Shown here: one piece after another, positions 201 through 26,038 of the stretch | Position numbering within the stretch: position 1 is the stretch's first letter | How the letters are laid out: each line of letters begins with the position of its first letter | Source of the DNA: an archaeon | GTDB lineage: Archaea > Iainarchaeota > Iainarchaeia > Iainarchaeales > CSSED10-239 | Assembly: GCA_035390665.1 (NCBI GenBank) | Contig: DAOOUC010000006.1 | Span: 1 to 32,000, forward strand | DNA length: 32,000 bases | Direction: 5' to 3' | Notes under the pieces: generated by a model | Told to the model about the DNA's origin: nothing | The model's input: only the letters and a program-made list of their open reading frames with translations | Database searches by the model: none | Position numbers and translations under genes: made by a program

Positions 201-761
201 ATGAGCGAAATAGATGATTATTTAGGTGATTTATCTGAATTACAAAAATATATTATTTTATTGTTAGCTTCTAACAATAATGTACCTATAAGAGGAGATG
301 TTTGGTTTCAAAAAGAGCTTTTTTTGATTGCCAAGAATTTGAAAAATATAGATGAAGAAGCATCATTTTGTTCTGATATGTATGGGCCATATAGTGAAAA
401 TGCAGATAATCAATTAGAAGAATTGGAATTAGATGATGTAATTAAGAAAGATGGTTCTAAAATTGCAATAACTAATTATGGCAAAGAAATTGCAAAAAAG
501 ATTGAATCCAATATTGCTAAGCCAATTTTAAATATGATTTCTGATTTCAAAATACTATTAAACGATTTAGACAATGAAGAAGTGTTAGCAATTATATATT
601 TTACTTTTCCGGATTATACTGATGAATCGTTAGTAATTGCTAATATTAAAAAAGATAGAAAAGAGATAGCAATTAGATTATACAAAAAGGACAAAATTAG
701 TTTACAAAAAGCATCCGAAATCGCCGGAATTCCATTAGATAAATTCATAAGGAGTATTTAA
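201..761 (+). CDS. Putative antitoxin: N-terminal wHTH/Panacea-like region fused to a UPF0175-type C-terminal HTH
   Basis: The C-terminal KISLQKASEIAGIPLDKFIRSI resembles the UPF0175 HTH that usually partners DUF3368 PIN proteins. The N-terminal assignment (LQKYIILLL...GDVWFQKELFLIAK...YGPYS) is weaker. Stop TAA at 759-761 lies 1 nt before the next ATG. Confidence 0.55.
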   Translation: MSEIDDYLGDLSELQKYIILLLASNNNVPIRGDVWFQKELFLIAKNLKNIDEEASFCSDMYGPYSENADNQLEELELDDVIKKDGSKIAITNYGKEIAKKIESNIAKPILNMISDFKILLNDLDNEEVLAIIYFTFPDYTDESLVIANIKKDRKEIAIRLYKKDKISLQKASEIAGIPLDKFIRSI

Positions 762-762
762 T

Positions 763-1254
763 ATGAAACTAGTGGATTCTTCTTGTTTAATTTGTTTATT
801 TGGGGAGATAAATAAGCCATTTGTATTATTGGATTGGAAAAGAAATGGACACAGGATAGTAATTACAGACCAAGTAAATGATGAAATTATTTGTGGTGAT
901 TGTTACAATAAAATTGTTTCAGAAATTAAAAATGGGAATATAGAAGTTGAACATTTAATTTCCTCACAAGAAGTAGATAAATTAAGATACAGATATCTAC
1001 GATTGGGAAAAGGCGAATGTTCAATAATTCTCGCAGCATTGAAATATAATCAAAAGAAAGAAAAATATTATGCTATATTAGACGATAAAGATGCACGAAA
1101 AATTGCAAAGGAAATGGGGGTTAATTTAACAGGTACAGTGGGTTTATTACTAAAATTAAAAGAAAAAAATTGTATTTCTGAAGAAACATATACAGATTGT
1201 GTGACACAAATGAAAAATTCTAAATTTAGATTTAATTGGGAGCAGTTAGAATGA
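763..1254 (+). CDS. PIN-like nuclease, DUF3368 subfamily (putative toxin)
   Basis: N-terminal VDSSCLICL, then GKGECSIILAA and AILDDKDARKIAKEMGVNLTGTVGLLLKLKE, match the pattern I know for DUF3368 PIN-domain proteins. It sits immediately downstream of the UPF0175-like gene. Confidence 0.7.
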   Translation: MKLVDSSCLICLFGEINKPFVLLDWKRNGHRIVITDQVNDEIICGDCYNKIVSEIKNGNIEVEHLISSQEVDKLRYRYLRLGKGECSIILAALKYNQKKEKYYAILDDKDARKIAKEMGVNLTGTVGLLLKLKEKNCISEETYTDCVTQMKNSKFRFNWEQLE

Positions 1255-4584: not shown

Positions 4585-6117
4585 ATGTTTAAGAAAATAT
4601 TAGTTATTTTAATATTATTAATGTCTGTGGGGTTAGTGCTTGCCGCAGATTCTAATTGTGAAGACGAAAACACAACAGTTTGTACTATTGAACCTGGAGA
4701 ACCATTGTTTGGAAAATTACTTACAAAAGACACAATTAACCAAACAGAAAAAACAGAAATATTTGGTTTAGTTTACTTTACAGGAATTGGTTGTCCTCAT
4801 TGTGCTAAAGTTGATCCAATCTTATTAAAGAAAATGCCATTTGAAAATAATAATTTAGCAATAATTGAATATGAAGTCAAATTAAATCAAGAAAATGCAA
4901 AACTAATGGTTGAATATAATAATGAGTTTGAATCAGGTCTTGGTTATCCATTAATTATTTTAAGTCAATATGATTCTTTTGTTTCAGGAGACATAGTCCC
5001 TAAAGTTGAAAGATCACTAGAACAAGGAAAAACAAACGATGTTCCTTTCCCAGCAACAGTTTATGAAAAAGGAACAACAGCCTTTGAAAATATAGAATTT
5101 AGTAAATTAAAAGGCAAACCAGTCATCTGGTATAATGGAAAAGTAATTTCAAGATTCTATGATGGAGAAACCCCAGTTGATGATAAGATATTACATGAAA
5201 TATTAAATGCAAAGACTCCAGAAGAGATTGAAGAAGTAATAAAGAAATATGATTACCACACAATAGATGATAAAAGAATACAACTATCTCAAACTGAAAT
5301 TGTTTTTGATAACACAATACATTTACCTGGTTGGAAAATATATTATAATGGGGAAAGTACACTTAGTTATGTTGCTTGTCCAATAACCACAGAAGTAACA
5401 GAACAAGACTGTGCAGAAAAGAAAAAAATTCCATTACTTACAGTTGTTTCTTTAGCTTTAGTTGATGCTGTTAATCCTTGTGAGTTTGCAGTTTTAATTA
5501 TGTTATTGATTGCTATAATGACTGCATATCCAAAAAATAAGAAAAAAACACTTCAAGCAGGACTTGCATTTACTGCTGCAATTTTTATTTTATATTTTAT
5601 TTATGGAGTGTTATTAATAAATGTCTTTAAATTAATACCAGGAATTGATTCAATTAGAACTGTAGTTTATACAATTATTGCTTGTATTGCAATATTGATT
5701 GGACTATTACAATTAAAAGACTTCTTTGATTATAAGCCAGGAGGATTTTTAACAGAAATGCCAATGTCGTTTAGACCAAAGGTCCAAAAGATGATATCAA
5801 GTATAACTTCACCAGGGGGTGCGTTTATTGTTGGAGCATTTGTAACACTTTTCTTGATGCCATGCACTATTGGGCCATATGTGATTTTAGGAAACTTGCT
5901 AGCATCTGAGACAATCCTTGCAGCTCTTCCACAGTTATTATTGTACAATATAATTTTCATACTTCCAATGCTTGCTATAACCTTTACAGTTTACTTTGGA
6001 GTAAGAAAAGTTGATCAAGTAGCAGAATGGAAAGCAAGAAACACAAAGTACATGCATTTAATAGCAGGAATCATAATGTTATTAATAGGTATTGGAATGT
6101 TATTAGGGTGGTTTTAA
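4585..6117 (+). CDS. Secreted thioredoxin-fold (CPHC) domain fused to a CcdA/DsbD-type thiol-disulfide transporter membrane domain
   Basis: Signal peptide MFKKILVILILLMSVGLVLAADS. GIGCPHCAKVDP is a Trx/DsbA-like active site. The C-terminal multi-TM region carries VDAVNPCEF and LMPCTIGPY, the two conserved Cys of CcdA/DsbD. Confidence 0.7.
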   Translation: MFKKILVILILLMSVGLVLAADSNCEDENTTVCTIEPGEPLFGKLLTKDTINQTEKTEIFGLVYFTGIGCPHCAKVDPILLKKMPFENNNLAIIEYEVKLNQENAKLMVEYNNEFESGLGYPLIILSQYDSFVSGDIVPKVERSLEQGKTNDVPFPATVYEKGTTAFENIEFSKLKGKPVIWYNGKVISRFYDGETPVDDKILHEILNAKTPEEIEEVIKKYDYHTIDDKRIQLSQTEIVFDNTIHLPGWKIYYNGESTLSYVACPITTEVTEQDCAEKKKIPLLTVVSLALVDAVNPCEFAVLIMLLIAIMTAYPKNKKKTLQAGLAFTAAIFILYFIYGVLLINVFKLIPGIDSIRTVVYTIIACIAILIGLLQLKDFFDYKPGGFLTEMPMSFRPKVQKMISSITSPGGAFIVGAFVTLFLMPCTIGPYVILGNLLASETILAALPQLLLYNIIFILPMLAITFTVYFGVRKVDQVAEWKARNTKYMHLIAGIIMLLIGIGMLLGWF

Positions 6118-6141
6118 TACAATCAAAATGGAGATAAAATT

Positions 6142-6498
6142 ATGTCAAGAAATTTAAGAGAACTTGGAGAAATAATAATTAAATTTAATGATAAAAGGAA
6201 TTGGCAAAAATATCAAACACCAAAAGATTTAGTAATAGGGATTTCTACAGAAGCTGGAGAATTACTAGATCATTTTAGATTTAAAACTGATGATGATATT
6301 AAACAAATTTTAGAAAATTCAAAACGAAAAGAAGACATTGCTGAAGAAGCGGCAGATGTATTGTGGTTTTTATTATTATTTGCAGAAAGAAATAATATTG
6401 ATTTAGAAGATGCATTATTAAAGAAATTAGAAAAAAATGATAAAAGATTTCCTGTAGAAAAATATACAGGATATTGGGAAAAACCAGGAAGAGAATAA
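6142..6498 (+). CDS. MazG-like nucleoside triphosphate pyrophosphohydrolase (DCTPP1-like)
   Basis: EAGELLDHF ... EEAADVLWFLLLFAERNNIDLEDALLKKLEKNDKRFP shows the all-alpha NTP-PPase EXXE/EXXD pattern. Confidence 0.75.
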   Translation: MSRNLRELGEIIIKFNDKRNWQKYQTPKDLVIGISTEAGELLDHFRFKTDDDIKQILENSKRKEDIAEEAADVLWFLLLFAERNNIDLEDALLKKLEKNDKRFPVEKYTGYWEKPGRE

Positions 6499-6539: not shown

Positions 6540-6977
6540 ATGATTAAAATAAAAAGACTAACAGAAACTGCAAAAGTTCCAACAAAGGCACATGAAGAAG
6601 ATGCGGGTTATGATCTTTATGCAGATGAAGAAAAAATTATTCCTGCACAATCAAGAGAATCAATACACACAGGAATTGCAATAGAGCTTCCAGACCTTCA
6701 AGAAGAAAATAAAGAAATATATGTGAGAATTGCTCCTCGTTCAGGTCTTTCGGTTAAATCTGGGATTGATATCTTTGGTGGAGTAATTGACAGAGGATAC
6801 ACAGGAGAACTTGTAGTTTGTATGTTTAATAGTTCTAAAGAAGAATTTAAAGTAAACAAAGGAGACAAAATTGCCCAAATGATTCCAACAATAATCTATA
6901 AAGATAACTTAGTAGAAGTAACAGAACTTCAAGAAAGCAAAAGAGGAGAAAAAGGATTTGGAAGTTCAGGAAAATAA
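6540..6977 (+). CDS. dut: dUTP diphosphatase (trimeric dUTPase)
   Basis: Canonical motifs are present: AGYDLYA, IAPRSGLS, GVIDRGYTGEL, KGDKIAQM, RGEKGFGSSG. Confidence 0.9.
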   Translation: MIKIKRLTETAKVPTKAHEEDAGYDLYADEEKIIPAQSRESIHTGIAIELPDLQEENKEIYVRIAPRSGLSVKSGIDIFGGVIDRGYTGELVVCMFNSSKEEFKVNKGDKIAQMIPTIIYKDNLVEVTELQESKRGEKGFGSSGK

Positions 6978-6998: not shown

Positions 6999-7028
6999 TC
7001 CTTTTCCTACTTAATATTAATAGAATAC

Positions 7029-7104
7029 TGCGATTTTTGTTAGGTGCGAGCAACCGCAGATAACTGCGGAAACAATTGCGCGCGAGCCTAGCGAAACAGG
7101 CTCT
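7029..7104 (+). ncRNA. GC-rich structured leader/element directly abutting the tRNA-Gly 5' end (copy A)
   Basis: A GC-rich island in AT-rich DNA. Hairpins CCGCAG-ATAA-CTGCGG (7054-7069) and GAGCC-N10-GGCTC (7084-7103). GCAA/TTGC and TGCG/CGCG flanks extend the first stem. It shares three sequence blocks with 18439-18575 in the opposite orientation. Confidence 0.4.
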
Positions 7105-7176
7105 GCAACTATAGTCTAGCGGTTAGGATCTCAGCCTTCCAAGCTGATGAGCCGGGTTCGAATCCCGGTAGTTGCA
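7105..7176 (+). tRNA. tRNA-Gly (anticodon UCC)
   Basis: Manual cloverleaf: acceptor GCAACTA/TAGTTGC, anticodon stem TCAGC/GCTGA with loop CTTCCAA, T-arm CCGGG-TTCGAAT-CCCGG. No encoded CCA. T-run follows. Confidence 0.85.
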
Positions 7177-7244
7177 CTTTTTTAATTATAGTCTATTTTT
7201 GTCTAATAAAAACATTTTAAAGAGTTATCTCTTACTATTTTTAT

Positions 7245-7988
7245 ATGAGAAAAAGATTGGATATTTCTAAGAATCCAATATTTAGAAAAATGGTAGGTAA
7301 ACCACTTAGAAAACCAAGATTGGAGTTTAATGAGAAAACTAATGTAGCTTTAGCTATTACTCCAAAGACAAGAACAACATTAAAAGAAAATCCAGGGATT
7401 CTTCTTAAATTTTTAAAATTTGTAAGAGAAGGTAAAAATTCTTCTACAACAAAATTGTTTTCATTTAAAAGATCAAAACAATCTAATTCTTTTTTAGTAG
7501 AAACTAAAGAACAAAAGTTATATGTTAGAAAGATAGAACAAGTAAATAAAGAAAGACCCTGGGGAAATCACGCATATAATTCTGCATTAATTATGTCCGA
7601 ATTAGAAGCACACGGGGTTAATACAGTACCTGTTGAATTTGCATATAGTAATCTAAAAAAAGGAGAAAGTTATATTGCTTATGATTACAAAGAATTAGAA
7701 AAACTACAAACACTTGAGAAAGCAAAAAAAGCAAGAACATTAACTGAAGCTGAAATTAAAGAATTTGAAGGTAATGTTTTTAACATAAATGCTAAATATT
7801 ACTACAAGATATTATCTAAATTAAAAAAAACAAAACCAACAAGAGAAAAACTATTATTTAGTTTCTATAAGGAGCACGAGATTTTATTTAACCCAACAAC
7901 AAGAAAATTTGTAGTATTTAATCCAGAAATAGATTTAAGAAGAAACAAATTGGAATATAATAAAAGATTTGCAGCAGAAGATTATTAA
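7245..7988 (+). CDS. Hypothetical protein, paralogue 1 of a three-member family (possible degenerate kinase-like fold)
   Basis: Shares AITPKT+T, LKENPG/ELxxFL, KxY/F-V/F-R/I-K, WGN, ExxxG(V/F)N, (Y/I)I(A/I)YDY and a terminal hydrophobic-F-(N/D) strand with the ORFs at 8419 and 22002. Confidence 0.6.
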   Translation: MRKRLDISKNPIFRKMVGKPLRKPRLEFNEKTNVALAITPKTRTTLKENPGILLKFLKFVREGKNSSTTKLFSFKRSKQSNSFLVETKEQKLYVRKIEQVNKERPWGNHAYNSALIMSELEAHGVNTVPVEFAYSNLKKGESYIAYDYKELEKLQTLEKAKKARTLTEAEIKEFEGNVFNINAKYYYKILSKLKKTKPTREKLLFSFYKEHEILFNPTTRKFVVFNPEIDLRRNKLEYNKRFAAEDY

Positions 7989-8009
7989 TTATAATGGAGG
8001 ATAAATAAA

Positions 8010-8432
8010 ATGGTAAAAGGATGTATTTTTTGTAAAATTTCAAAAGGGAAGATGCCTTGCTATAAGGTTTATGAAGATAAAAAAATTATTGCTTTTTTAG
8101 ATATTAATCCAATAACTAAAGGACATACACTTGTGATACCTAAAAAACACCATGAAAATATCTTTGATTGTAAGGATAAAATTTTAGAAAAGATTATTAA
8201 AGTCGCTCAAAAGATTGCAATTAATTATAAGGAAAAATTAGGATGTACTGGAGTAAATGTATTAAATGCTTCTGGGCAATCAGCAGAACAATCAGTATAT
8301 CATATTCATTTTCATATAATTCCAAGATTTGATGAAGATGGTTATAAAACCTGGCCAAATACAGGATATCAAAAAGAAGATTTAGAAAGTTTAACAAATA
8401 AATTAAAACTTGAAGAAAATGGTAAAGAATAG
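8010..8432 (+). CDS. HIT-family nucleotide hydrolase/transferase (HinT-like)
   Basis: Histidine triad HIHFHIIPR. N-terminal CIFCKI and ITKGHTLVIPKKH. GGAGG lies 9 nt upstream of the ATG. Confidence 0.85.
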   Translation: MVKGCIFCKISKGKMPCYKVYEDKKIIAFLDINPITKGHTLVIPKKHHENIFDCKDKILEKIIKVAQKIAINYKEKLGCTGVNVLNASGQSAEQSVYHIHFHIIPRFDEDGYKTWPNTGYQKEDLESLTNKLKLEENGKE

Positions 8433-9327
8433 ACAAATAAATCTAAATAAATCAATGAATAGAAGAGAACAAAGAAAAACTATTTATCAAACTAAATTAA
8501 ATCTAACTGCCGAAGAAAGAACACAACGTAAAAAAGACTTCTTAAGATTTCTAAACGAAAGACAAAAGATTGAAGTTAAAGAAAAAGTAAAAAATCCAAG
8601 ATTTAGATTTGTAGAATCAGAAACAAAAGAATTAGGATATTCTAAATTAGCAAAACAAATAATACACGAAACCCCAGGACTATTAAGAGAATTTTATAGA
8701 GTATCAAAAGAAAGACTAAAAGAATATAAAGACCCAGAAGGCAGATTTGAAATAAAAAGACACTTGATGTTGCCGTCTGTTAGAACAACAAACGTTGCTT
8801 ATGTCTTGTCTGTTAAACATAATGGAAAAATAAAGAGATTTTTTATAAAAGAAACAAATAATTCAGGAATTTTAGAAAGAACAAGTGGAAATAACAAAAC
8901 TACTTCTTTTTTAGATTATGTAAATAGAGGAATAGACGGAATAAGTGAAGCAAGAGCTTTATCTTTGATTCAAGATTGTGGGATTCAAATAATTACTCAT
9001 CATTTTGCGTTTAAAGATCTAGAAAGAAAAAAAAGCTATATTGTTTATGATTTTGTACCAGAATTATTAAATGGAATACATTTAAAGAAATTAATCTCAA
9101 GAAAACAAATACCTATGTCAAAGATACAAGAAATAAAACAATATATTGAAGATGCAAAAGATAAGATTTATCAAGAATTAAAAAATAAGAACAAATATGG
9201 AATAGAGGATAATAGAATCATAACAGATATTTTAGATTTCGATAATATTTATTATGATAGTAAAAAAGATAAGGTATTTTTATTTGATCCTTTATTAGAA
9301 AATACAGAATATGTAAGAAAGATATGA
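8419..9327 (+). CDS. Hypothetical protein, paralogue 2 of the family
   Basis: The first ATG (8419) overlaps the HIT 3' end. Alternative starts are TTG 8410 and ATG 8455. Family motifs: IIHETPGLLREF, RFFIKE, SGN, GIQII, SYIVYDF, DILDFDNIYY, VFLFDP. The stop overlaps the next gene (ATGA at 9324-9327). Confidence 0.6.
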   Translation: MVKNRQINLNKSMNRREQRKTIYQTKLNLTAEERTQRKKDFLRFLNERQKIEVKEKVKNPRFRFVESETKELGYSKLAKQIIHETPGLLREFYRVSKERLKEYKDPEGRFEIKRHLMLPSVRTTNVAYVLSVKHNGKIKRFFIKETNNSGILERTSGNNKTTSFLDYVNRGIDGISEARALSLIQDCGIQIITHHFAFKDLERKKSYIVYDFVPELLNGIHLKKLISRKQIPMSKIQEIKQYIEDAKDKIYQELKNKNKYGIEDNRIITDILDFDNIYYDSKKDKVFLFDPLLENTEYVRKI

Positions 9328-10730
9328 ATAAAATAATTAAAGCAATATTATTTTCATCAATAATATTCTTAATAATAATATTACAAACAATTGTGGGAAA
9401 TATGAATGATAATAATTTTAGAAAACCAACAGTGGCTGGAAGTTTCTATCCTGAAAATAAAGCAATACTTACAAGTCAATTAGATACTTTTTTTGAAAAA
9501 GTAGAAATAAAATATTCTGGAGAAAAAGTAAATGCACTTATTGTTCCACACGCAGGATATATATATTCTGGAAAAACAGCAATGTTTGGCTATAAAGAAC
9601 TTTACTTGGATTTATTACTTAGAGAAGAAGATAATTTTAAAATTATTATTATTGCCCCTGCGCACACAGAATATGTTAAAGATATAGTTATATCTGACTA
9701 TAATTATTTTAGAACACCATTTGGAGATATTAAAATTAATTCTACAAAAATAAAAGCAGAAATAAACAACTCTCCACATGTTAAAGAACACTCTATTGAA
9801 GTTCAGCTTCCTTTCTTACAATATATTTTCCAAAAGGCAGGAAAAGAATTTACAATTGTTCCTATAATTGTTGGAGAAGTAAATGAAAAAGAAATATCAG
9901 AAATTGCTAAAGATATAAACAAAGAAATTACAGAAAATACAATAGTGATTGTCTCAAGTGATCTTTCACATTATCTACCTGAAGAAAAAGCTAAAGAAAT
10001 TGATAATAAAACAATACAGCAAATCTTGGACAACACAACAAATAACAAAATAGATGCCTGTGGTAAAAACCCTATATTGGTATTAGAAGAAATTGCTAAA
10101 ATAAAAAAATGGAATAAGCCAAAACTATTAAAACAAACAACCTCTGGAGATGTCACAAAAGACAAAAAAGCAGTTGTTGGTTATGCAAGTATTTCTTATA
10201 CAGAAAATAAAGAACATTTATTGATAAGATTAGCACATAGATCAATACAAAATGTTTTTGATTCCAGAGCTGATAACTTTAAAGACTTACAAACCTCAAT
10301 TCCAAAAGAATACTTAGAAAAGAAAGGAAGTTTTGTAACTTTAACAATAGGAAAAAGACTAAGAGGATGTATTGGTAACATTACAAGCACAAAAACAGTT
10401 TTTGAAGGAATAATTTCTAATTCCAAGTTTGCTGCTTTTCAAGACCCACGTTTTGATGAATTAACTGAAAAAGAATTTGAGAGAACAGATATTGAAATAT
10501 CAATTCTTTCTAAACCAAAAGATTGTACTTTAGAAGAAATCAAGATTGGAGAAGGAGTAATTATAAGACAAGGGGTAGCTAGTGCTGTTTATCTTCCACA
10601 AGTTTGGGAACAATTACCTGATAAAGATCAATTTCTTGCAAGTCTATGTGAGAAAGCAGGACTAGAGTGGAACTGTTACAAAGAAAAAGAAACAAAATTT
10701 CAAAAATTTTCTGTTGAAATAATTGAATAA
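9324..10730 (+). CDS. Fusion of Memo-like (AmmeMemoRadiSam protein B) and AMMECR1 (protein A) domains with an N-terminal TM helix
   Basis: N-terminal hydrophobic IIKAILFSSIIFLIIILQTIV. Memo motifs: VAGSFYPEN, LIVPHAGYIYSG, IIAPAHT, EHSIEVQLPFLQ, SSDLSHY. AMMECR1 motifs: GSFVTLT...LRGCIGN, QDPRF, ISILS, AVYLPQVW. Confidence 0.8.
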   Translation: MNKIIKAILFSSIIFLIIILQTIVGNMNDNNFRKPTVAGSFYPENKAILTSQLDTFFEKVEIKYSGEKVNALIVPHAGYIYSGKTAMFGYKELYLDLLLREEDNFKIIIIAPAHTEYVKDIVISDYNYFRTPFGDIKINSTKIKAEINNSPHVKEHSIEVQLPFLQYIFQKAGKEFTIVPIIVGEVNEKEISEIAKDINKEITENTIVIVSSDLSHYLPEEKAKEIDNKTIQQILDNTTNNKIDACGKNPILVLEEIAKIKKWNKPKLLKQTTSGDVTKDKKAVVGYASISYTENKEHLLIRLAHRSIQNVFDSRADNFKDLQTSIPKEYLEKKGSFVTLTIGKRLRGCIGNITSTKTVFEGIISNSKFAAFQDPRFDELTEKEFERTDIEISILSKPKDCTLEEIKIGEGVIIRQGVASAVYLPQVWEQLPDKDQFLASLCEKAGLEWNCYKEKETKFQKFSVEIIE

Positions 10731-15006: not shown

Positions 15007-16502
15007 AATTCCAGCTGATCCTGCTGGTGGATACTGCTATTAGAGTTTGACTAAGACATGCAAGTTTGAAAGTCTCGGCCATGAGAGACTTTGGCAGACG
15101 GCTCAGTAACGCGTGGTCAACCTACCTTTCTGATAAGTTAATCTTGGGAAACTGAGGATAATGCTTAATAGAAAAACAAATCTGGAATGATTGTTTTTTC
15201 AAAGGTCTTGCACTCATGCGTGTAAGATGCGGAAAGATGGGACTGCGTCAGATTAGGCTGTTGGCAGGGTAACTGCCTACCAAACCGAAGATCTGTACGG
15301 GCCTTGAGAGAGGGTGCCCGGAGAAGGAAACTGAGATAAGGTTCCTAGCCCTACGGGGTGCAGCAGTCGCGAAACTTTTACAATGCGGGAAACCGTGATA
15401 GAGAGACTCTAAGTGCCAGCAAAAACTGGCTTTTATATAGCTTAGATAGCTATGTGAATAAGGGGGGGGCAATATGCGTGCCAGCCGCCGCGGTAATACG
15501 CAATCCTCGAGTGGTATCCAGCTTTATTTGGCTTAAAGCGTGTGTAGCTGGTTTATTAAGTCTTTTGTGAAAGCAGTGAGCTCAACTTATTGAATTGCAA
15601 AAGATACTGGTAGGCTAGAGATAGGGAGACGTCTGGGGTATTCCTAGAGTAGGAGTAGAATCTTAAGATACTAGGAAGACCACCTGTGGCGAAGGCGCCA
15701 GACGAGAACTAGTCTGACAGTGAGACACGAAAGCTGGGGGCGCAACCCGGATTAGATACCCGGTTAGTCCCAGCCGTAAACGATGCGAATTAGGTGTTGG
15801 GTTAACTACGAGTTAACTCAGGGCCGAAGGGAAACCATTAAATTCGCCGCCTGGGGAGTACAGTCGCAAGGCAGAAACTTAATGGAATTGGCGGGGGTGC
15901 ACTACAAGGGGTGGATGCTGCGGTTTAATTGGATGAAACGCCAGATATTTTACCAGAACAGACAGCAAGATGATGGTCAGTCTAAAGGGCTTACCTGATG
16001 CGCTGAGAGGTGCTGTATGGCCGTCGCCAGCTCGTACTGTGAAGCTTCCTGTTAACTCAGGTAACGGGCGAGACCCATGTTATTAGTTGCTACTTTCTTT
16101 AGTGATAAGGAGAGGCACTCTAATAAGACTGCATTGGTAACAATGAGGAAGGAATGGGCGAAGGCAGGTCTGTATAGCCCGATTGCTCTGGGCAACACGC
16201 GGCATACAATGACTAGGACAATGAGTCTCTAACCCGAAAGGGGGTGGCAATCTCAGAAACCTAGCCGAAGTTCGGATTGTGGGTTGCAACTCACCCACAT
16301 GAAGCTGGAATCCCCAGTAATCGCGTGTCACTATCGCGCGGTGAATATGTCCCTGCGCCTTGCACACACCGCCCATCAAGCCAGTTGAGTAGAGTGTGGA
16401 TGAACTCTAGCCTATTACAGGTTAAAGTAATTCTACATTTTGCGAGACGGACTAAGTTGTAACAAGGTGTCCGTAGGGGAACCTGCGGACGGATCACCTC
16501 CT
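15007..16502 (+). rRNA. rrs: 16S ribosomal RNA (archaeal type)
   Basis: 5' AATTCCAGCTGATCCTGCTGGTGG (cf. ATTCCGGTTGATCCTGCCGGAGG). GTGCCAGCCGCCGCGGTAATAC, GGATTAGATACCC, GCACACACCGCCC. 3' GTAACAAGGT...GGATCACCTCCT. About 1.5 kb. Ends are good to about +/-5 nt. Confidence 0.95.
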
Positions 16503-18300: not shown

Positions 18301-18366
18301 TTAAAATAAACATTATTTATTGGACAAATATCAATTTATAATAATTTCTTTAACTAATCTATCTAT

Positions 18367-18438
18367 GGGCTTCTAGTTCAATGGTAGAATATCTCCTTCG
18401 CATGGAGAAGGTTGCGAGTTCGAGTCTCGCGAAGTCCA
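18367..18438 (+). tRNA. tRNA-Ala (anticodon CGC)
   Basis: Acceptor GGGCTTC/GAAGTCC with G3:U70, anticodon stem TCTCC/GGAGA with loop TTCGCAT, T-arm GCGAG-TTCGAGT-CTCGC. TATA (TTTATAATAA) lies about 30 nt upstream. Confidence 0.85.
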
Positions 18439-18575
18439 TGAGAGCCGGTTTCGGTCGTGCTAAACAAATCGCATCTGTGATTTCTTGGCATCCAGAAAAC
18501 TTATAGTTTTCTTGAGCTCGCGCCCAATGGTGTCGGTTCGTGCGCAATGGATTTCGCGGTTATCCGCAATGATTA
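18439..18575 (-). ncRNA. GC-rich element abutting the tRNA-Ala(CGC) 3' end (copy B; inverted and rearranged relative to 7029-7104). The transcribed strand is unknown.
   Basis: Read on the minus strand it contains GCGGATAACCGCGAAATCCATTGCGCACGAACC, which matches 7056-7088 at 26/33 positions. It also contains TGCGATTTGTTTAG (cf. 7029-7043) and CGAAACCGGCTCT (12/13 vs 7092-7104). Confidence 0.4.
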
Positions 18576-18591
18576 ATTTATATTTATTTCT
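18571..18591 (+). promoter_or_regulatory. Promoter (TATA TTTATATTTA) for tRNA-Ala(AGC)
   Basis: GATTAATTTATATTTATTTCT recurs at 18695-18715 with one mismatch. The TATA box ends 24 nt before the tRNA 5' end. Confidence 0.5.
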
Positions 18592-18609
18592 CTGGTTAAT
18601 TATATTAAA

Positions 18610-18681
18610 GGGCTTCTGGCTCAACGGTAGAGCACTTCCCTAGCACGGAAGGGGTTGCGAGTTCGAATCTCGCGGAGTCCA
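18610..18681 (+). tRNA. tRNA-Ala (anticodon AGC)
   Basis: Acceptor GGGCTTC/GGAGTCC with G3:U70, D stem GCTC/GAGC, anticodon stem CTTCC/GGAAG with loop C-T-A-G-C-A-C, T-arm GCGAG-TTCGAAT-CTCGC. T-run follows. Confidence 0.8.
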
Positions 18682-18694
18682 CTTTTAAAAAAAA

Positions 18695-18715
18695 GATTCA
18701 TTTATATTTATTTCT
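18695..18715 (+). promoter_or_regulatory. Promoter (TATA TTTATATTTA) for tRNA-Ala(UGC)
   Basis: GATTCATTTATATTTATTTCT is the second copy of the 21-nt promoter block. Confidence 0.45.
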
Positions 18716-18765
18716 TTAATTATATATATTAGTAATCAAGCAATTTTTGTTTTAAATTCTTAGAT

Positions 18766-18837
18766 GGGCTCCTGGCTCAATGGTAGAGTACTTCCCTTGC
18801 ACGGAAGGGGTTGCGAGTTCGAGTCTCGCGGAGTCCA
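18766..18837 (+). tRNA. tRNA-Ala (anticodon UGC)
   Basis: Acceptor GGGCTCC/GGAGTCC with G3:U70, anticodon loop CTTGCAC. It differs from the AGC copy at only 5 of 72 positions. Followed by the hairpin GCGTTTTTCTT-TC-AAGAAACACGC. Confidence 0.88.
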
Positions 18838-18945
18838 TGCGTTTTTCTTTCAAGAAACACGCGGAAAAGAAACTACTTATTTTGCTATTCTATTTTTTAG
18901 ATAACTTTATAAATTATATATTTCTATATTATATTGTGATAATTT

Positions 18946-20190: not shown

Positions 20191-20809
20191 ATATTTTTTC
20201 TAATCTTTTTATAGATCTTTTTAAATTAATTCTGGCTTTTTTTTCATATTTTTTTCTATAGAAATCAGTATTATAAATATTTGATTTTTGTAAAAAGTAA
20301 AGTAATACTTTTATTCTTCCATCTTTGTATTTTTCTAACGGAACCCAATAATATTCTTTTCTAATATTATTTTCATATTTATCAAATTCTTTTTTGGATT
20401 GCCCAAAAATACACAAGTCAATATCTTGTAATAATCTTTCTTCCTTTTTTCTAGATGTTTTCTGATGTTTTGTAGAAAGTATTAATGATGTCGTTTTATT
20501 TATTAATTTATTAGATAATTTTGCTTTTTTTAAAACTTTTACAAGATATTTTGCAGACATTTCTTCGTTATCATTATCTTTTGTATCGTAGATTATATCG
20601 TGATACCAAATAGCAAGTTCAATTAAATCAAAATCATATTTGTCTTTAGTTTTTTTAAAATTATCTAATTCTTTTAAACACATTTTTATATGTGATAAGT
20701 TATGATAATATCTTTTTTTGGAATAAAGTGTATTTAAATTATTAAATTCAATAATTGGATCACTTTTCGCATTAATTTGCTTCCATAACTTAATAAATTT
20801 TGATTTCAT
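20189..20809 (-). CDS. HD-superfamily metal-dependent phosphohydrolase (COG4339-like)
   Basis: YHNLSHIKMCL ... AIWYHDIIYD fits the H...HD pattern of this family. Confidence 0.6.
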   Translation of the reverse strand: MKSKFIKLWKQINAKSDPIIEFNNLNTLYSKKRYYHNLSHIKMCLKELDNFKKTKDKYDFDLIELAIWYHDIIYDTKDNDNEEMSAKYLVKVLKKAKLSNKLINKTTSLILSTKHQKTSRKKEERLLQDIDLCIFGQSKKEFDKYENNIRKEYYWVPLEKYKDGRIKVLLYFLQKSNIYNTDFYRKKYEKKARINLKRSIKRLEKI

Positions 20810-21945
20810 TTTAGATTTAATTCTTTTATTATATTGTCGATTATTTTATTTAGAACTTCTTTATTTTTATTAAATTCTTCAGAATTATCAAAAATCCACA
20901 ATTTTCCGTAATTATTTTTTACTATTATTTCTTCTAAATTATTTTTCTTTTGTATATAGTCAAATTGGCTATTTAATCTTCTATCTATCTGTTCACTAGT
21001 TAGTTTTCTAGAGAATAGTCTTTGTTTTTGAATATCTTTATCTACTTTAACAACTAATACATTATTATTACAAAGATATGTAAGATTAGATTCTGCAATT
21101 AATGCAGCATTAATTATTATGAGTCCTTTTTTACCATATATTTCTTTTCTTAATCTTACTAATATTGGAGTATACATTATTTCATTTAATTGCTTTAATT
21201 TTTCATTATTATTAAATACAATTTCTCCAAGAATTTTGCGATCTATTGTTCCATCAGATTTCTTTATATTTTCTCCAAAAGTTTTAATTAATTGATTTCT
21301 GATTTTCTCATATTTTTCATCTTTTAATTCAGAGAGAATCTTGTGCCCCAAATGATCTAATTCAATATTGTGTGCCTCTATTCCTTTTTCTTTACATAGT
21401 TCTAAAATTTGTTCACAAACAAAAGATTTCCCACTTCCAATTTCTCCAGTTACTCCTATAATAAACTGATTAGATAATTTTCTTTCAATCTCTTGCTTAA
21501 CATTTAAAGGTACATATTCATGTACAAATCCTTGTTCTTTCTGAATTCCTTTTACTACACTTGAACTTACATGAGCAAGTTCTGGTCTTGCAAAAAGAAT
21601 AAAAGTATCAATACCTAATTTTTGACTATCTCCTACTTGATGTAAAATATTTTCATAATCAAAATCAGCAGAATTTCTTACACCTTTAACTATAACATCT
21701 ATGTCATTTTCGTAAGCATAATCCACTAAAAGTCCAGAAAAAGAGACTACTTTTACATTATTTAAATCAATTAAGGATTTTTTAGCAAGAGATAGTCTTT
21801 CTTCTAGAGTAAACAAATAATTCTTACTGGGATTTACTCCAATTCCAACAACGACTTTATCAAAAACTTTAGAAGCTCTCTTAATTATGTCAATATGTCC
21901 AAAAGTAATTGGATCTCCAGAAAATGCATACATTGCTGTTGTCAT
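20806..21945 (-). CDS. coaDE: Bifunctional bacterial-type phosphopantetheine adenylyltransferase (CoaD) / dephospho-CoA kinase (CoaE) fusion
   Basis: N-terminal half: FSGDPITFGHIDIIKRA, NPSKNYLFTLEER, GLLVDYA, VKGVRNSADFDYE, SSSVVK (CoaD). C-terminal half: IGVTGEIGSGKS P-loop and CoaE-like remainder. The stop overlaps the HD gene start by 4 nt. Confidence 0.8.
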   Translation of the reverse strand: MTTAMYAFSGDPITFGHIDIIKRASKVFDKVVVGIGVNPSKNYLFTLEERLSLAKKSLIDLNNVKVVSFSGLLVDYAYENDIDVIVKGVRNSADFDYENILHQVGDSQKLGIDTFILFARPELAHVSSSVVKGIQKEQGFVHEYVPLNVKQEIERKLSNQFIIGVTGEIGSGKSFVCEQILELCKEKGIEAHNIELDHLGHKILSELKDEKYEKIRNQLIKTFGENIKKSDGTIDRKILGEIVFNNNEKLKQLNEIMYTPILVRLRKEIYGKKGLIIINAALIAESNLTYLCNNNVLVVKVDKDIQKQRLFSRKLTSEQIDRRLNSQFDYIQKKNNLEEIIVKNNYGKLWIFDNSEEFNKNKEVLNKIIDNIIKELNLK

Positions 21946-22001: not shown

Positions 22002-22814
22002 ATGCCACTAAGAAATATTACTTTAGGCTCAAGATTAAGATCCAAAGTAAGAACAATTAGAAAGATAACAACAAAAGATAATGGAAAAGTAGCAATAACT
22101 GTTGATCCAAAAACAAAAACACGATTTTATACTAAAGTTGAAAAAAACCAATTTAATCTTCCTTCAAGAATCACACACATGACCCCTGAAGCCCATAGAA
22201 TATTAAAAGAAAATCCAGAATTACCTAATTTTCTAAAACAAGAGCTTTCTCAAAAAGGTAAAAGAATAGATGCAAGATTAGAAACAAGAAATGGAATATT
22301 TATCTTAAGAGATTTTGAAAATAATGGTTTAACAAATAATGGAACATTTAGTTTATGGTATATGGATAAAAAAACAACCACAAATAAAACTTATTTTATA
22401 AAAAGATATCCGAATCTTACAAGTTGGGGTAATGCAGAAGCTGAATTTCTCGCGGTTAAAGAAATGGAAAGATTAGGATTTAATATAATTAAACCACAAT
22501 TTGCAATTACCGATATAGCAAAAACACCTAATATTATTATTTATGATTATACTAATCTATTATCTTATCCTCAAGCAGTAATAAAAAGAAAAATAAGTGG
22601 TAGTGAAATACTTAAAATAGAAGAAACTTTTACTAAATTAGTAAAATCTCCTGCATTAAAAAATCTAAATGATTTTCACACATTTACATATAGGGTTTCT
22701 CCTAATAAGAACGTCTTTATTAAAAGATTATCTAATGGTAAATTAAAACTATATTTTACTGATATCTATTGGGAAGAAGAAGCATATAAAAGAAAGAGAG
22801 AAGAATATCTATGA
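22002..22814 (+). CDS. Hypothetical protein, paralogue 3 of the family
   Basis: The ORF-track start 21981 is a TTG inside the TATA region, so ATG 22002 is preferred. Motifs: VAITVDPKTKT, ILKENPELPNFL, TYFIKR, WGNAEAEF, GFNIIKP, NIIIYDY, SPNKNVFI, LYFTDI. The stop overlaps the tdk start (ATGA at 22811-22814). Confidence 0.6.
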   Translation: MPLRNITLGSRLRSKVRTIRKITTKDNGKVAITVDPKTKTRFYTKVEKNQFNLPSRITHMTPEAHRILKENPELPNFLKQELSQKGKRIDARLETRNGIFILRDFENNGLTNNGTFSLWYMDKKTTTNKTYFIKRYPNLTSWGNAEAEFLAVKEMERLGFNIIKPQFAITDIAKTPNIIIYDYTNLLSYPQAVIKRKISGSEILKIEETFTKLVKSPALKNLNDFHTFTYRVSPNKNVFIKRLSNGKLKLYFTDIYWEEEAYKRKREEYL

Positions 22815-23380
22815 GTGGAATATTAACTACAATTGTTGGGCCAATGTTTTCTGGTAAAACAACAGAACTTTTGCGTTTGATGGATAGAGAATTGATTGCT
22901 AAAAGAAGTTCAATTCTATTTAAACCAAATATAGATAATAGATACTCAAAAGAAGAGGTTGTTAACCATAACGGTATTGGAAGAAAAGCACTAATTGCTT
23001 GCTGTTCTAAAGATATTTTAAATAAAGTTTTAGAATTAGAAAAAACCGAAAATATAGAAAACATATTTATTGATGAAGTTCAATTTTTTGATTCAGGAAT
23101 AACTGATGTTATTAAAAAAATTAATGATTTAGGAATAGACATATATACTTGTGGACTTAATCAAACCTTTAAAGGAGAACCATTCCCGTTTAAGGATGGA
23201 GAAAAAGACATAGGTTATCTTATGGCTATAAGTGATTATGTTATATCTATTGATGCTGTTTGTAATGAATGTGGAAACAAAGCCACAAAGACATATAGGA
23301 AAGGAAAGGAAGAAGAAACAGTAATTGTTGGTGGGCAAGACTTGTATCAAGCAAGATGTAAAAATTGTTGGAATAAATAA
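22811..23380 (+). CDS. tdk: Thymidine kinase
   Basis: GPMFSGKTTELL P-loop, IDEVQFF, a C-terminal zinc motif CNECG...and RCKNC. Confidence 0.9.
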   Translation: MSGILTTIVGPMFSGKTTELLRLMDRELIAKRSSILFKPNIDNRYSKEEVVNHNGIGRKALIACCSKDILNKVLELEKTENIENIFIDEVQFFDSGITDVIKKINDLGIDIYTCGLNQTFKGEPFPFKDGEKDIGYLMAISDYVISIDAVCNECGNKATKTYRKGKEEETVIVGGQDLYQARCKNCWNK

Positions 23381-23438: not shown

Positions 23439-23867
23439 ATGGCAGAAGAATCAATTCAATTTATAGCAAATTTTGATAAATTTGTTTCTATTAAGAAACT
23501 AACAATTGACAAAGAAGTTGGACCAAAAGAAGTTATTGAATTTCTTACAAGTGTTCAGTTTACTACATCTCAAAAAATAAAAGACTATATTGGTAAGATA
23601 ATAGATGTTAAAAGCTTTGATGAAAAAACCAAAAAACTTTATGCACTAAATCTTGGACAATTTATGGAAGAAGTTAATTCAAATGGAACAAAGAAAATAA
23701 TTAAAGAATTTATACCTGCAACAATGGAAAAGAAAGAAGAAAAAGATGCATATATTGAACTTTTAAAAGTTTACTTGATAGAAAAATATGCTGCAGAAAA
23801 AAAGATAGTCATCGGGGCACACCATATTGTCTTTCCAGCAAATAAAAAGTTAATGAAGAAGAAATAA
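23439..23867 (+). CDS. Hypothetical protein (142 aa)
   Basis: ORF preceded by AAGGAG. No recognisable motif. Confidence 0.5.
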   Translation: MAEESIQFIANFDKFVSIKKLTIDKEVGPKEVIEFLTSVQFTTSQKIKDYIGKIIDVKSFDEKTKKLYALNLGQFMEEVNSNGTKKIIKEFIPATMEKKEEKDAYIELLKVYLIEKYAAEKKIVIGAHHIVFPANKKLMKKK

Positions 23868-23868
23868 A

Positions 23869-24750
23869 ATGAATTTTTCAGAAAAATTAAAACTAAGATG
23901 GGATTTATCTCTTTTCTCTCTTGTTATAACAAATATAATTGTAATTGTTATAGCTATTATTCAGAAATGGGACTTTCCAATATTGTTTTCAGTATATATA
24001 GCACAAACTCAAATAATTGCTTTCTTTTATTTCTTTAAAATAATATTTAAAAAAAACACAATAACTTATGGATTAACAATTAATAAGAAAACAATTAATC
24101 CGACAATTACTAATAAATTAATTTTAGCATTACTTTATTATGGTGGTTTTTATCTGGTTATGAGAATTGTTTATTTTTTTGCTCAGTTCTTGAGTTTTAC
24201 AATGCCAGGACTGAACCTTTCTAAAATGGCAACTGCTTTTGTGGGTATTGTTATTTTTTTTATAAATCATCTAATCTCATTTATAGTTAATTTTAAAATA
24301 GATTCAGAAAAAGAAGAAACATTAAAAGAATTAATGATTGCTCCGTATTTAAGAATTATACCAATCATTATAATTAGTTTCTTTGGTATTTTACTTAATT
24401 TTTTATCAATTATATTTTTAATATTAAAAGCAATTGTTGATATTTATAGTCATAACTATATACATCAAATGAAAGACGACTATTTGAAATATAAGGTAAA
24501 GAATAAAACAAAAGAAAATCCAAAAACAAATTTAATAAAAATTAAATCATCAGTTGCGCCTTTTGTCAAAGGTCTAGTAATCTATTGGATAGTATCTGTT
24601 GCAATTTTTATTGTTTTATTATTTTTAATATTAGGTGCAATAGTAAATTTTTGGTTTTATATAGCCTCAGGATTATCTTTAATTGTTACAATATTACTAA
24701 TTCTTGTTTTCCTTAAACATTTTAAAAGAATCAACGAGTCAGACAAATAA
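23869..24750 (+). CDS. Hypothetical polytopic membrane protein (293 aa)
   Basis: Starts 1 nt after the previous stop. Multiple hydrophobic helices. Confidence 0.55.
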   Translation: MNFSEKLKLRWDLSLFSLVITNIIVIVIAIIQKWDFPILFSVYIAQTQIIAFFYFFKIIFKKNTITYGLTINKKTINPTITNKLILALLYYGGFYLVMRIVYFFAQFLSFTMPGLNLSKMATAFVGIVIFFINHLISFIVNFKIDSEKEETLKELMIAPYLRIIPIIIISFFGILLNFLSIIFLILKAIVDIYSHNYIHQMKDDYLKYKVKNKTKENPKTNLIKIKSSVAPFVKGLVIYWIVSVAIFIVLLFLILGAIVNFWFYIASGLSLIVTILLILVFLKHFKRINESDK

Positions 24751-24828: not shown

Positions 24829-24955
24829 CCCTCCTTAGCATAGCGGTTAGTGCGTCCGGCTGTAGACTAAAAGATTACACTCTTTTTTTGATTGTGGCAA
24901 TCCACATCAAAAGGCAGTGACCGGAAGATCCCCAGTCCAAATCTGGGAGGAGGGA
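24829..24955 (+). tRNA. tRNA-Tyr (anticodon GUA) with a 54-nt intron (24866-24919) at canonical position 37/38
   Basis: Acceptor CCCTCCT/AGGAGGG gives C1:G72 (archaeal/eukaryal Tyr identity). D stem GCAT/GTGC. Anticodon stem TCCGG...CCGGA is split by the intron after CTGTAG. T-arm CCCAG-TCCAAAT-CTGGG. Confidence 0.8.
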
Positions 24956-25033: not shown

Positions 25034-25095
25034 AAATAGTGTATTACTCACTAAAGTGTATTACTCGATACCTTTTTAAATATTTTGAGTAATAC
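25034..25095 (+). promoter_or_regulatory. Operator-like repeat array and TATA box upstream of fic
   Basis: AGTGTATTACTC occurs twice (25038-49, 25055-66), with its inverted copy GAGTAATAC at 25087-95. TTTTAAATAT (25074-83) lies about 20-30 nt before ATG 25103, suggesting a leaderless mRNA. Confidence 0.45.
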
Positions 25096-25102
25096 AATTT
25101 AT

Positions 25103-26038
25103 ATGAGCTATTTATCTAAATTACAAAGAAATAATAAAACGTATTATTATCTTGTAGAGAATATTCCTGTGTCAAAAGGAAAAAGAAAGCAGATAAGAAA
25201 ATATATAGGAACTGCAAAACCAACAGAGCAACAGTTATCTTTAGAATTATCAAAATTTGAAAACGAAATTAGCCCTAAGAAAAAGCAATTGCAAGGATTT
25301 ACATATTTAACTAAAGACGAAATTAAAGAAATTGATGAGATTAATTCAAATTTTTGGAAGAAATACAATACCTTAACAAAAACAGAAAAAGAAAGCTTTT
25401 GGAATAACTTCATTAGTGTTTTTGTATATAATACCAATTCAATAGAAGGTTCTACTTTAACCTTAAAAGAAGTTGAACTATTATTATCTGAAAACATTTC
25501 TCCAAATAGACCATTAGAAGATGTATTAGAAACAAAATCTGCTAAAAGAGCAATTGATTATCTTTTAGACTATAAAGAAGATTTATCTATTGATTTAATA
25601 ACCGAATTACATAAAATTTACTTTAAAGAAAGCTTTCCAGAGATTGCAGGTAAATTAAAAAGATTAAACAATAGAATAATGGGCTCAAAATTTGATACCA
25701 CCCCAAAAGAATTTGTTTTAACTGACTTAAAGATATTTATTGATAATTATAATAAACTAAAAAAAGAACTACATCCAATAGAGCTTTCAGCTTGGACACA
25801 TTGGGCTTTTGTTAAGATTCATCCGTTTCAAGATGGTAATGGCAGAATATCAAGATTAATAATGAACTTTGTACTTCACAAAAACAAATATGCATTAATT
25901 GATATTAAAACCAAAGAAAAGCAAGCTTATTTTAATGCACTTGAAAGATGTAATTATACAAGCAATGGAAAACCATTAGCACAAAGATTAGTTAGAAGAT
26001 TTAAAAAACAATATCAAAATGCTTTTTCAGAACTATAA
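25103..26038 (+). CDS. fic: Fic/DOC-family protein (probable AMP transferase) with an intrinsic inhibitory helix motif
   Basis: Fic motif HPFQDGNGRISR. Upstream TNSIEG fits the (S/T)xxxE(G/N) auto-inhibition motif. The ORF-track start 25085 is a TTG, so ATG 25103 is preferred. Confidence 0.85.
   Translation: MSYLSKLQRNNKTYYYLVENIPVSKGKRKQIRKYIGTAKPTEQQLSLELSKFENEISPKKKQLQGFTYLTKDEIKEIDEINSNFWKKYNTLTKTEKESFWNNFISVFVYNTNSIEGSTLTLKEVELLLSENISPNRPLEDVLETKSAKRAIDYLLDYKEDLSIDLITELHKIYFKESFPEIAGKLKRLNNRIMGSKFDTTPKEFVLTDLKIFIDNYNKLKKELHPIELSAWTHWAFVKIHPFQDGNGRISRLIMNFVLHKNKYALIDIKTKEKQAYFNALERCNYTSNGKPLAQRLVRRFKKQYQNAFSEL

Follow-up and report, generated by a model that had tools for sequence, protein, structure and literature searches.

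Three paralogous genes of an uncultured archaeon very probably encode members of an undescribed minimal protein kinase-like family

The window analysed in this study is a stretch of 32,000 nucleotides (nt), positions 1-32,000 of the forward strand of contig DAOOUC010000006.1 (GCA_035390665.1). It has a GC content of 28% and is archaeal, with a small-subunit rRNA gene at 15008-16502. We describe here three related plus-strand genes of this window, designated P1, P2 and P3, whose products are all annotated at NCBI as 'hypothetical protein [archaeon]'. P1 (7245..7988; 247 amino acids (aa), HOW29605.1), the probable pseudokinase among the three, was recognised by BLASTP to P2 and P3 and by hmmalign to the family profile. 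It is followed by a gene for a histidine triad protein of the HinT-like kind (HIT; 8010..8432, plus strand), and reading of the sequence revealed a Shine-Dalgarno-like motif, GGAGG (7996..8000, plus strand), 9 nt before the HIT ATG. The HIT product matched Pfam HIT at 9.5e-27, and its best NCBIfam match was HinT (1.6e-29), under the equivalog cutoff. P2 (8419..9327; 302 aa, HOW29607.1), the paralogue with the complete catalytic set, was characterised by its AlphaFold 2 (AF2) model, by Foldseek and by profile matches. The P2 gene begins inside the HIT gene with an overlap of 14 nt, as read from the sequence; an alternative in-frame TTG start at 8410 is less likely because the orthologues begin with MVKNRQ. 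The stop codon of P2 overlaps the start of a Memo-AMMECR1 fusion gene (9324..10730, plus strand; Pfam Memo 6.6e-54, AMMECR1 5.5e-42) in an ATGA at 9324. The third paralogue, P3 (22002..22814; 270 aa, HOW29619.1), identified by BLASTP and by alignment of its clade, overlaps in the same manner (ATGA at 22811) the start of a thymidine kinase gene, tdk (22811..23380, plus strand; Pfam TK 7.7e-46).

In a preliminary description of this DNA, every copy was said to be translationally coupled to a neighbour. The junctions themselves (the GGAGG motif, the 14-nt overlap and the two ATGA overlaps) were found as described; they are not distinctive, as of the window's 22 pairs of neighbours on the same strand, 9 overlap or are separated by 3 nt at most. 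Since overlap or abutment is usual here, translational coupling says little about function. Upstream of P1 lie a MazG-like gene (6142-6498, plus strand; Pfam MazG 1.4e-10) and a dUTPase gene (6540-6977, plus strand; Pfam dUTPase 3.7e-33), given for context only, so that each neighbour named earlier (HIT, Memo-AMMECR1, tdk, dUTPase and MazG) was confirmed by Pfam. The two upstream genes do not, however, share a transcription unit with P1 as written, because the gap between dUTPase and P1 measures 267 nt and contains a tRNA-Gly(TCC) gene (7105..7177, plus strand; ARAGORN, Rfam and sequence reading). The P1-HIT-P2-Memo/AMMECR1 gene string is bounded upstream by this tRNA gene.

Formal pairwise comparison of P1, P2 and P3 by BLASTP gave E-values of 1e-6, 2e-6 and 2e-6 (single comparisons), all of them significant. 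When a hidden Markov model of the family was searched against the six-frame open reading frames (ORFs) of the window, only P1, P2 and P3 were recovered, and no fourth copy was found in this ORF set, the next best match having E=0.05. By sequence comparison, the three are real, remote paralogues, as had been proposed. The family-wide motifs are, in order, ENPG-L, K-Y-F-x-K, E...G-x-N-x-I, FA(Y/F), xI(V/A)YD(F/Y), D-x4/5-N and (F/Y)xFD, and most of the ordered motif set listed earlier is retained among them. The motif AITPKT+T, previously assigned to P1 and P3 in common, was dropped, as alignment of the P3 clade revealed that the two occurrences are not positionally homologous: in P1, AITPKT+T adjoins the ENPG motif, and in P3 the string AITVDPKTKT lies about 30 residues further upstream. 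The true P3 counterpart of the P1 segment is 'HMTPEAHRILKENPE'.

With HMMER, 1.84 billion representative proteins were searched exhaustively, which yielded 128 family members at E≤1e-3; almost all of these are 200-310 aa long, and each represents a cluster at 50% identity. A word-indexed homologue search was nearly blind to the family (16, 23 and 15 matches), and a back-translated locus search with the P2 clade recovered only 2 genome loci. Every recovered family locus had a GC content of 23-31% and carried archaeal genes; the family is lineage-restricted, belonging to one lineage of uncultured low-GC archaea. None of the families in Pfam, NCBIfam, PADLOC or PHROG matched P1, P2 or P3, and the Pfam and NCBIfam scans of the three proteins, of further members and of the consensus agree with the earlier statement that no named family is recognisable. 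GatF, SH2 and the N-terminal domain of poxvirus polyA polymerase, which appeared in single-sequence Pfam/NCBIfam scans, were chance-level matches and were rejected. A weak similarity to DUF6382 was observed, with a best E-value of 5.9e-5 among 3 of 60 members and a consensus match of E=4e-4 at 20.6 bits, under the 26.7-bit cutoff. A literature search joining DPANN, protein kinase-like and archaea found no paper.

To describe the columns of the family, the numbering of P2 is used, in alignments of 60 and 94 members. A profile built from the three window sequences had no match among PDB sequences, and significance was reached only with the 60- and 94-sequence profiles. The 94-sequence profile matched 6vvg_A at E=4.4e-5 and CK2α' at 1.6e-3. 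Entry 6VVG, deposited under the name 'arginine kinase', is PK-1 of Cydia pomonella granulovirus, which has a eukaryotic protein kinase fold (PMC7881018). In the alignment with PK-1, the family segment KKyFvKe was placed opposite KRFVCKIVK, and sDitpeNvfid…lylfD opposite nDVKLENLLYD…LFVCDY; the 60-sequence profile aligned the same motifs to 'HRDVKPHNVMID…LRLIDWG' of CK2. K144 is aligned to the β3 Lys region of PK-1, the catalytic-loop residues D270 and N276 stand opposite HRDVKPHN of CK2 and DVKLEN of PK-1, and D290 stands opposite the Asp of IDWG in CK2 and of CDY in PK-1. Among the 94 members, K144 is conserved in 95%, D290 in 90%, E177 in 88%, D270 in 87% and N276 in 83%, which places these columns among the most conserved of the family; the hinge residue Tyr210 and Pro86 of the N-terminal ENPG-L motif are conserved too. 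Together, K144, E177, D270, N276 and D290 make up the pentad that typifies the protein kinase-like (PKL) superfamily, Lys / Glu / Asp-x-x-x-x-Asn / Asp, and hmmalign to the family profile gave the reading KEYDND in 93 of 187 collected sequences.

The AF2 model of the P2 core, built on the family alignment, had a predicted local distance difference test score (pLDDT) of 92.3 and a predicted TM-score of 0.90; an earlier, shallower model (pLDDT 79) gave an unchanged Foldseek picture. With the core model, all top-50 Foldseek matches in the PDB were kinases, the first being Rio1 of A. fulgidus (1zth_D; probability 1.00, TM 0.43/0.44, 234 columns of 245 residues, E=1.8e-3, root-mean-square deviation 10 Å), and among the viral structures of BFVD, viral Ser/Thr kinases came top (E=4.8e-4). 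Four of five features of PKL membership were found in the family, namely the β3 Lys/αC Glu pair, D-x4/5-N, the Mg-binding Asp and the bilobal fold, the fifth being enzymatic activity. The evidence from sequence, structure and conservation agrees on a kinase relationship, and the suggestion of a small protein-kinase fold resembling RIO and Kdo kinases was upheld by profile-to-PDB comparison, by AlphaFold with Foldseek and by the conserved K-E-D-N-D columns. As regards fold and family assignment, we consider it very likely that P1, P2 and P3 are diverged members of an undescribed minimal PKL protein family.

The architecture of the family starts with a variable basic N-terminal tail, followed by a conserved extension made of a β-hairpin and a helix-ENPG-helix unit, a five-stranded N-lobe with αC, and the hinge (xIVYDF); then come two or three helices, including an αE-like one, the strands of the catalytic loop and the Mg loop, and the C-terminus. 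In the AF2 model of P2, residues 1-57 form the basic tail, at low confidence, and residues 60-100 the β-hairpin and helix-ENPG-helix extension. The C-terminus is reached at a median of 12 residues past the Mg-binding Asp, and within 31 residues in 93 of 94 members. P2 ends 12 residues past D290, a stretch modelled as a single strand plus a helix of 6 residues. The activation segment and αF-αI are absent from the family. The PKL superfamily and its tendency to produce such offshoots are already well known, and the shortened C-lobe is the main novelty as compared with just another PKL family. What was found is an uncatalogued PKL family with an unusually truncated C-lobe, an N-terminal module of its own and internal pseudokinase diversification. 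With a full N-lobe, the catalytic and Mg-binding loops and nothing past the DFG-equivalent Asp, it ranks among the most reduced kinase-like architectures encountered in this study, and it raises the question of how a kinase core without the αF scaffold is stabilised and finds its substrate.

Comparison with known systems revealed that the eukaryotic-type kinases (PK-1, 6VVG, and CK2α') gave the only statistically significant sequence-profile matches, with the β3 Lys, D…N and the DFG-equivalent Asp in register; the alignment extends over only about 150 residues at 26 bits. Unlike them, the family has no HRD context, no GxGxxG loop and no activation segment, APE motif or αF-αI, and Pfam Pkinase (PF00069) matched neither P1-P3 nor the 60 members nor the consensus. 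By structure, on the P2 model, the RIO kinases (A. fulgidus Rio1, PDB 1ZTH/3RE4, PF01163) rank first, at marginal scores. Like the family, they are small atypical PKL proteins of archaea in which an additional element precedes the N-lobe, the activation loop is absent and the K / E / D-x-x-x-x-N / D set is present. [quoted passage not shown] The top structural match in the PDB, in which 234 of 245 residues were aligned to Rio1, fits this explanation, as do the similar size, the N-terminal extension ahead of the N-lobe and the missing activation loop; so does a long low-confidence insert of P2 between β3 and αC, since the flexible loop of RIO kinases sits at that position. The insert is, however, confined to P2 and not family-wide. 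Pfam RIO1 matched none of the 60 members at E≤0.1 and not the consensus at E≤10, Pkinase and APH likewise matched none of them, and no RIO or Bud32 chain was found in the PDB with the family profile at E≤10. For Kdo/WaaP (PF06293), two of the 60 members had a match (best E=0.028), far under the gathering score. Rio1 continues with C-lobe helices past the metal-binding Asp, whereas the family ends about 12 residues past it; given the established topology of RIO kinases, the family is more reduced than they are. It also has its own ENPG-L motif and occurs in several copies per genome, with pseudokinases and rapid turnover, in contrast to the single-copy, universal RIO and Bud32 proteins. Descent from one of these named kinases with retention of its role is thus very unlikely.

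Bud32 is a small archaeal and eukaryotic PKL protein with a reduced C-lobe, often encoded beside its partner. It resembles the family in these respects; Bud32/PRPK, a kinase/ATPase working in the KEOPS complex (PMC11621456), was absent from the top Foldseek and profile matches, and no Kae1 neighbour was present. By concept, 'minimal' kinases such as HopBF1 (PMC9950578) and Bud32 come nearest. The HopBF1-type minimal bacterial effector kinases (PDB 6PWD/8HOE) gave sub-threshold profile matches that are not significant (E=0.41-0.51), and HopBF1 is a secreted bacterial effector targeting host HSP90, whereas the family is archaeal, cytoplasmic by appearance and multi-copy.

The three paralogues differ in their catalytic residues. 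P2 looks catalytically complete from its residues: the pentad is intact at K144 (8848-8850), E177 (8947-8949), D270 (9226-9228), N276 (9244-9246) and D290 (9286-9288), all on the plus strand, the catalytic loop has the form D-x5-N and the hinge residue is Y210. The ratio of nonsynonymous to synonymous substitution rates (dN/dS) of P2 against its orthologue at the related locus L001 is 0.13, the values for HIT and Memo-AMMECR1 being 0.14 and 0.15. In P1, the five catalytic residues are replaced throughout (K by R95, E by S113, D by S206, N by E212 and D by N226), and hmmalign gave the reading RSYSEN. This pattern of loss is common to its orthologues, and the 48%-identical protein P0015 reads K-S-G-E-E. 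The dN/dS of P1 against the L001 orthologue is 0.29, so that purifying selection persists. Since all five catalytic residues are lost and the gene is nevertheless under purifying selection, we infer that P1 is a non-catalytic pseudokinase, perhaps with a role as scaffold or regulator; the earlier suspicion of a pseudo-enzyme, which was founded on the Asn in place of the metal-binding Asp alone, was upheld and fell short of the full extent of the loss. P3 has K134, E148, N237 and D254, with R231 at the position of the catalytic Asp. In the P3 clade the first four residues are invariant, and only one clade member has Asp at the position of R231. The dN/dS of P3 is 0.13-0.30, and that of tdk is 0.11. 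With its nucleotide- and metal-binding residues kept and an Arg for the catalytic Asp, P3 appears to bind ATP/Mg without a conventional catalytic base, and it is probably transfer-deficient or mechanistically atypical.

The gene order around P1 and P2 recurs in related genomes. The string dUTPase - family gene(s) - HIT - Memo/AMMECR1 - (M50 peptidase, FEN1) was found in five distinct genomes (the window, L001, L004, L014 and L015), and dUTPase precedes the family gene(s) in L001, L004, L014 and L015. The number of copies varies: L014 and L015/16 have a single family gene ahead of HIT, L004-6 have three in tandem there, the order in L001 is P1, a truncated copy of 203 aa, HIT and P2, and that in the window is P1, HIT and P2. 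In a neighbour-joining tree, P2 is sister to the pre-HIT clade, a placement suggesting that a gene was duplicated to the other side of HIT and that the original copy then decayed. The second block, orf244 - P3-clade gene - tdk - (sometimes another family gene) - DUF2666, was found at all but one distinct locus of the P3 clade, tdk being absent from L007/L008. In the window, tdk is followed by a DUF2666 protein gene and then a gene for a DUF6498 membrane protein (23439-24750); DUF2666 comes after tdk, or after the family gene behind tdk, in most related loci. Its identity is 74-93% overall, against 67-95% for tdk, and is the higher of the two in most loci with both. Decaying copies were observed at two places: the 203-aa copy of L001 (6875-7486) lies before HIT and ends ahead of the catalytic loop, and in L026 (2497-3339) a P3-clade gene directly upstream of tdk is split into two ORFs.

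Among the syntenic genomes, identity is 62-88% for HIT, 71-90% for dUTPase and 67-95% for tdk, and only 32-67% for the family genes, in collinear blocks; the kinase-like genes are the fastest-evolving genes of their blocks. Because the syntenic genomes are close relatives with collinear blocks, adjacency is inseparable from inherited synteny. Other clades of the family lie in unrelated contexts: 1 nt after TBP (L017), 11 nt after an RPA-like gene (L020), 12 nt after a GNAT acetyltransferase gene (L019) and beside ERCC4 (L018); there is therefore no family-wide nucleotide-metabolism theme. Taken together, the adjacency to HIT, Memo-AMMECR1 and tdk is real in this lineage and at present not separable from inherited synteny in a packed genome; the co-occurrence expected from the preliminary description does recur, among close relatives only. 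Family genes appear to be duplicated locally, relocated and lost, while the housekeeping backbone around them is otherwise conserved. The three copies of the window were correctly counted at the outset, and 'triplication' is too small a term for what is a multi-clade family with birth-and-death turnover.

These neighbourhoods bear on the possibility that nucleosides, nucleotides or related compounds are the substrates of the paralogues, which would then be small-molecule kinases in one pathway with HIT, tdk, Memo-AMMECR1, dUTPase and MazG, such as the salvage of nucleotides in a reduced genome. Besides the recurrence of the dUTPase-family gene(s)-HIT-Memo/AMMECR1 string in the five genomes, the P3-clade/tdk pairing, often with a 4-nt overlap, is kept at all but one distinct P3-clade locus and outlives upstream rearrangement, two extra minus-strand genes lying between orf244 and P3 in the window. 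Small-molecule kinases with a PKL fold exist, and a few members had weak sub-threshold matches to Kdo and fructosamine kinases. However, the linkage may be inherited, as all syntenic loci come from close relatives and are collinear; the P3-clade gene of L007/L008 does without tdk, the other clades lie 1-12 nt after TBP, RPA-like or GNAT genes or beside ERCC4, and equally tight spacing is seen in 9 of 22 same-strand pairs of the window. P1 is to all appearance catalytically dead and P3 is without the catalytic Asp, the truncated C-lobe shows no obvious substrate pocket, and the best sequence matches are protein kinases and not kinases of APH-, ChoK- or Kdo-type. We consider a small-molecule kinase pathway unlikely; the nucleotide-handling kinase system first suggested for these genes was not borne out by the wider set of loci, and the present evidence reveals no new nucleotide-salvage pathway.

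The rapid divergence of the family genes (46-67% identity for P3 where tdk has 67-87%) and the different copy numbers in related genomes could also point to a toxin kinase resembling HipA or to some other module of conflict or defence, in which the pseudokinase P1 would be the decoy or antitoxin paired with an active P2, and weak matches to HipA_C were found (one member at E=0.014, consensus at 0.09). Against this, no PADLOC or PHROG match was obtained, and tblastn against 50,697 phage records found no match for the family, which leaves a defence or viral origin unsupported. The genes lie inside conserved housekeeping strings and not in islands, purifying selection on P2 is as strong as that on HIT, and single-copy arrangements without a pseudokinase partner occur in L014 and L015. 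A toxin or defence role is most improbable.

For the minimal PKL family, the following mode of action is proposed. P2 and most members would bind ATP·Mg through the β3 residue K144, E177 of αC, N276 and D290, with D270 as the presumed catalytic base, and would transfer or hydrolyse the γ-phosphate, that is, act as phosphotransferases or ATPases. P1 would be non-catalytic and possibly a scaffold or regulator, and P3 a nucleotide-binding, atypical member. Having no substrate-docking platform of its own, the family would act on, or be switched by, a macromolecular partner in the manner of RIO and Bud32; as the substrate-docking C-lobe is absent, a macromolecular partner is the most likely one and a free nucleoside or nucleotide substrate less likely. 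RIO proteins are ATPases working on a macromolecular client (PMC5815136), and both RIO and Bud32 act as kinase/ATPases (PMC5815136, PMC11621456). Several points weigh against this reading. The Foldseek E-values are marginal (best 1.8e-3 in the PDB) and the TM-scores are 0.3-0.45, and the family is therefore distant from every solved kinase. The repeated placement next to tdk, at every distinct P3-clade locus except one, and next to HIT/Memo-AMMECR1, in five distinct genomes, could mean a true functional link. The preference for a macromolecular client is drawn only from the absent C-lobe elements and from analogy with RIO and Bud32, and neither a protein nor a small-molecule substrate is inferable for the family. 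On the whole, a PKL family working through a macromolecular partner is the reading we favour as reasonably probable, from sequence, model and analogy.

A further proposal is that the members are client-dedicated minimal kinases or ATPases, each clade being co-translated with, and acting on, the adjoining product (HIT, thymidine kinase, TBP, the RPA-like protein or GNAT), with the substrate-docking surface missing from the shortened C-lobe supplied in trans by the partner or by a pseudokinase such as P1. This is quite unlikely; if true, core proteins of nucleotide metabolism, transcription and replication in a reduced archaeon would be subject to a phospho-regulatory layer specific to the lineage. 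For the family as such, three 'hypothetical' proteins and about 128 related clusters outside the curated libraries can now be assigned a fold, a probable chemistry and a status as active or dead, and uncultured genome-reduced archaea would appear to have an expanding, fast-evolving repertoire of kinases and pseudokinases on a conserved housekeeping backbone.

The Memo-AMMECR1 fusion scored above cutoff as the AmmeMemoRadiSam system proteins B (TIGR04336, 241 bits) and A (TIGR04335, 160 bits). The only radical SAM gene of the window (27999-29039) was considered as the partner of this system and rejected, as its product is MoaA-like, below cutoff, and the radical SAM model of the system was not among its matches. 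As this gene is MoaA-like and lies 17 kb from Memo-AMMECR1, the radical SAM partner of the AmmeMemoRadiSam system is not adjacent.

Divergently upstream of P3, the minus strand carries at 20806-21945 a gene for a fusion protein of 379 aa, consisting of a bacterial-type CoaD (TIGR01510, 155 bits) and the dephospho-CoA kinase CoaE (TIGR00152, 107 bits), that is, the last two steps of CoA synthesis in bacterial style in an archaeal genome. A Fic-domain protein with a coiled-coil-like N-terminal region is encoded at 25085-26038 (Pfam Fic 9e-18), and another Fic gene (5171-6154) lies near the family member of L020.

The 16S rRNA gene at 15008-16502 stands alone, with no adjacent 23S rRNA gene in the window. 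A 127-nt tRNA match at 24829-24955, obtained with Rfam and not with ARAGORN, is likely to include an intron. Genes for three tRNA-Ala species (anticodons CGC, AGC and TGC) are clustered at 18366-18838, with no GGC isoacceptor among them. The middle one (18610-18682) has the anticodon loop CU-AGC-AC, making it an A34 tRNA-Ala in an archaeon; this is odd, as archaea normally use G34 in tRNA-Ala and are not known to carry out A34 deamination. Two stretches, at 7020-7100 upstream of tRNA-Gly and at 18440-18560 between two tRNA-Ala genes, are G+C-rich by eye; they had no Rfam match at gathering score and may represent small RNAs, or else leader or spacer segments of tRNA precursors. Close to the start of the window (201-1254), the gene for a UPF0175-like protein is followed 1 nt on by that for a DUF3368 protein (27.2 bits against a cutoff of 27.3 bits); DUF3368 is presumably PIN-like, in which case the two would form a pair of the toxin-antitoxin type.

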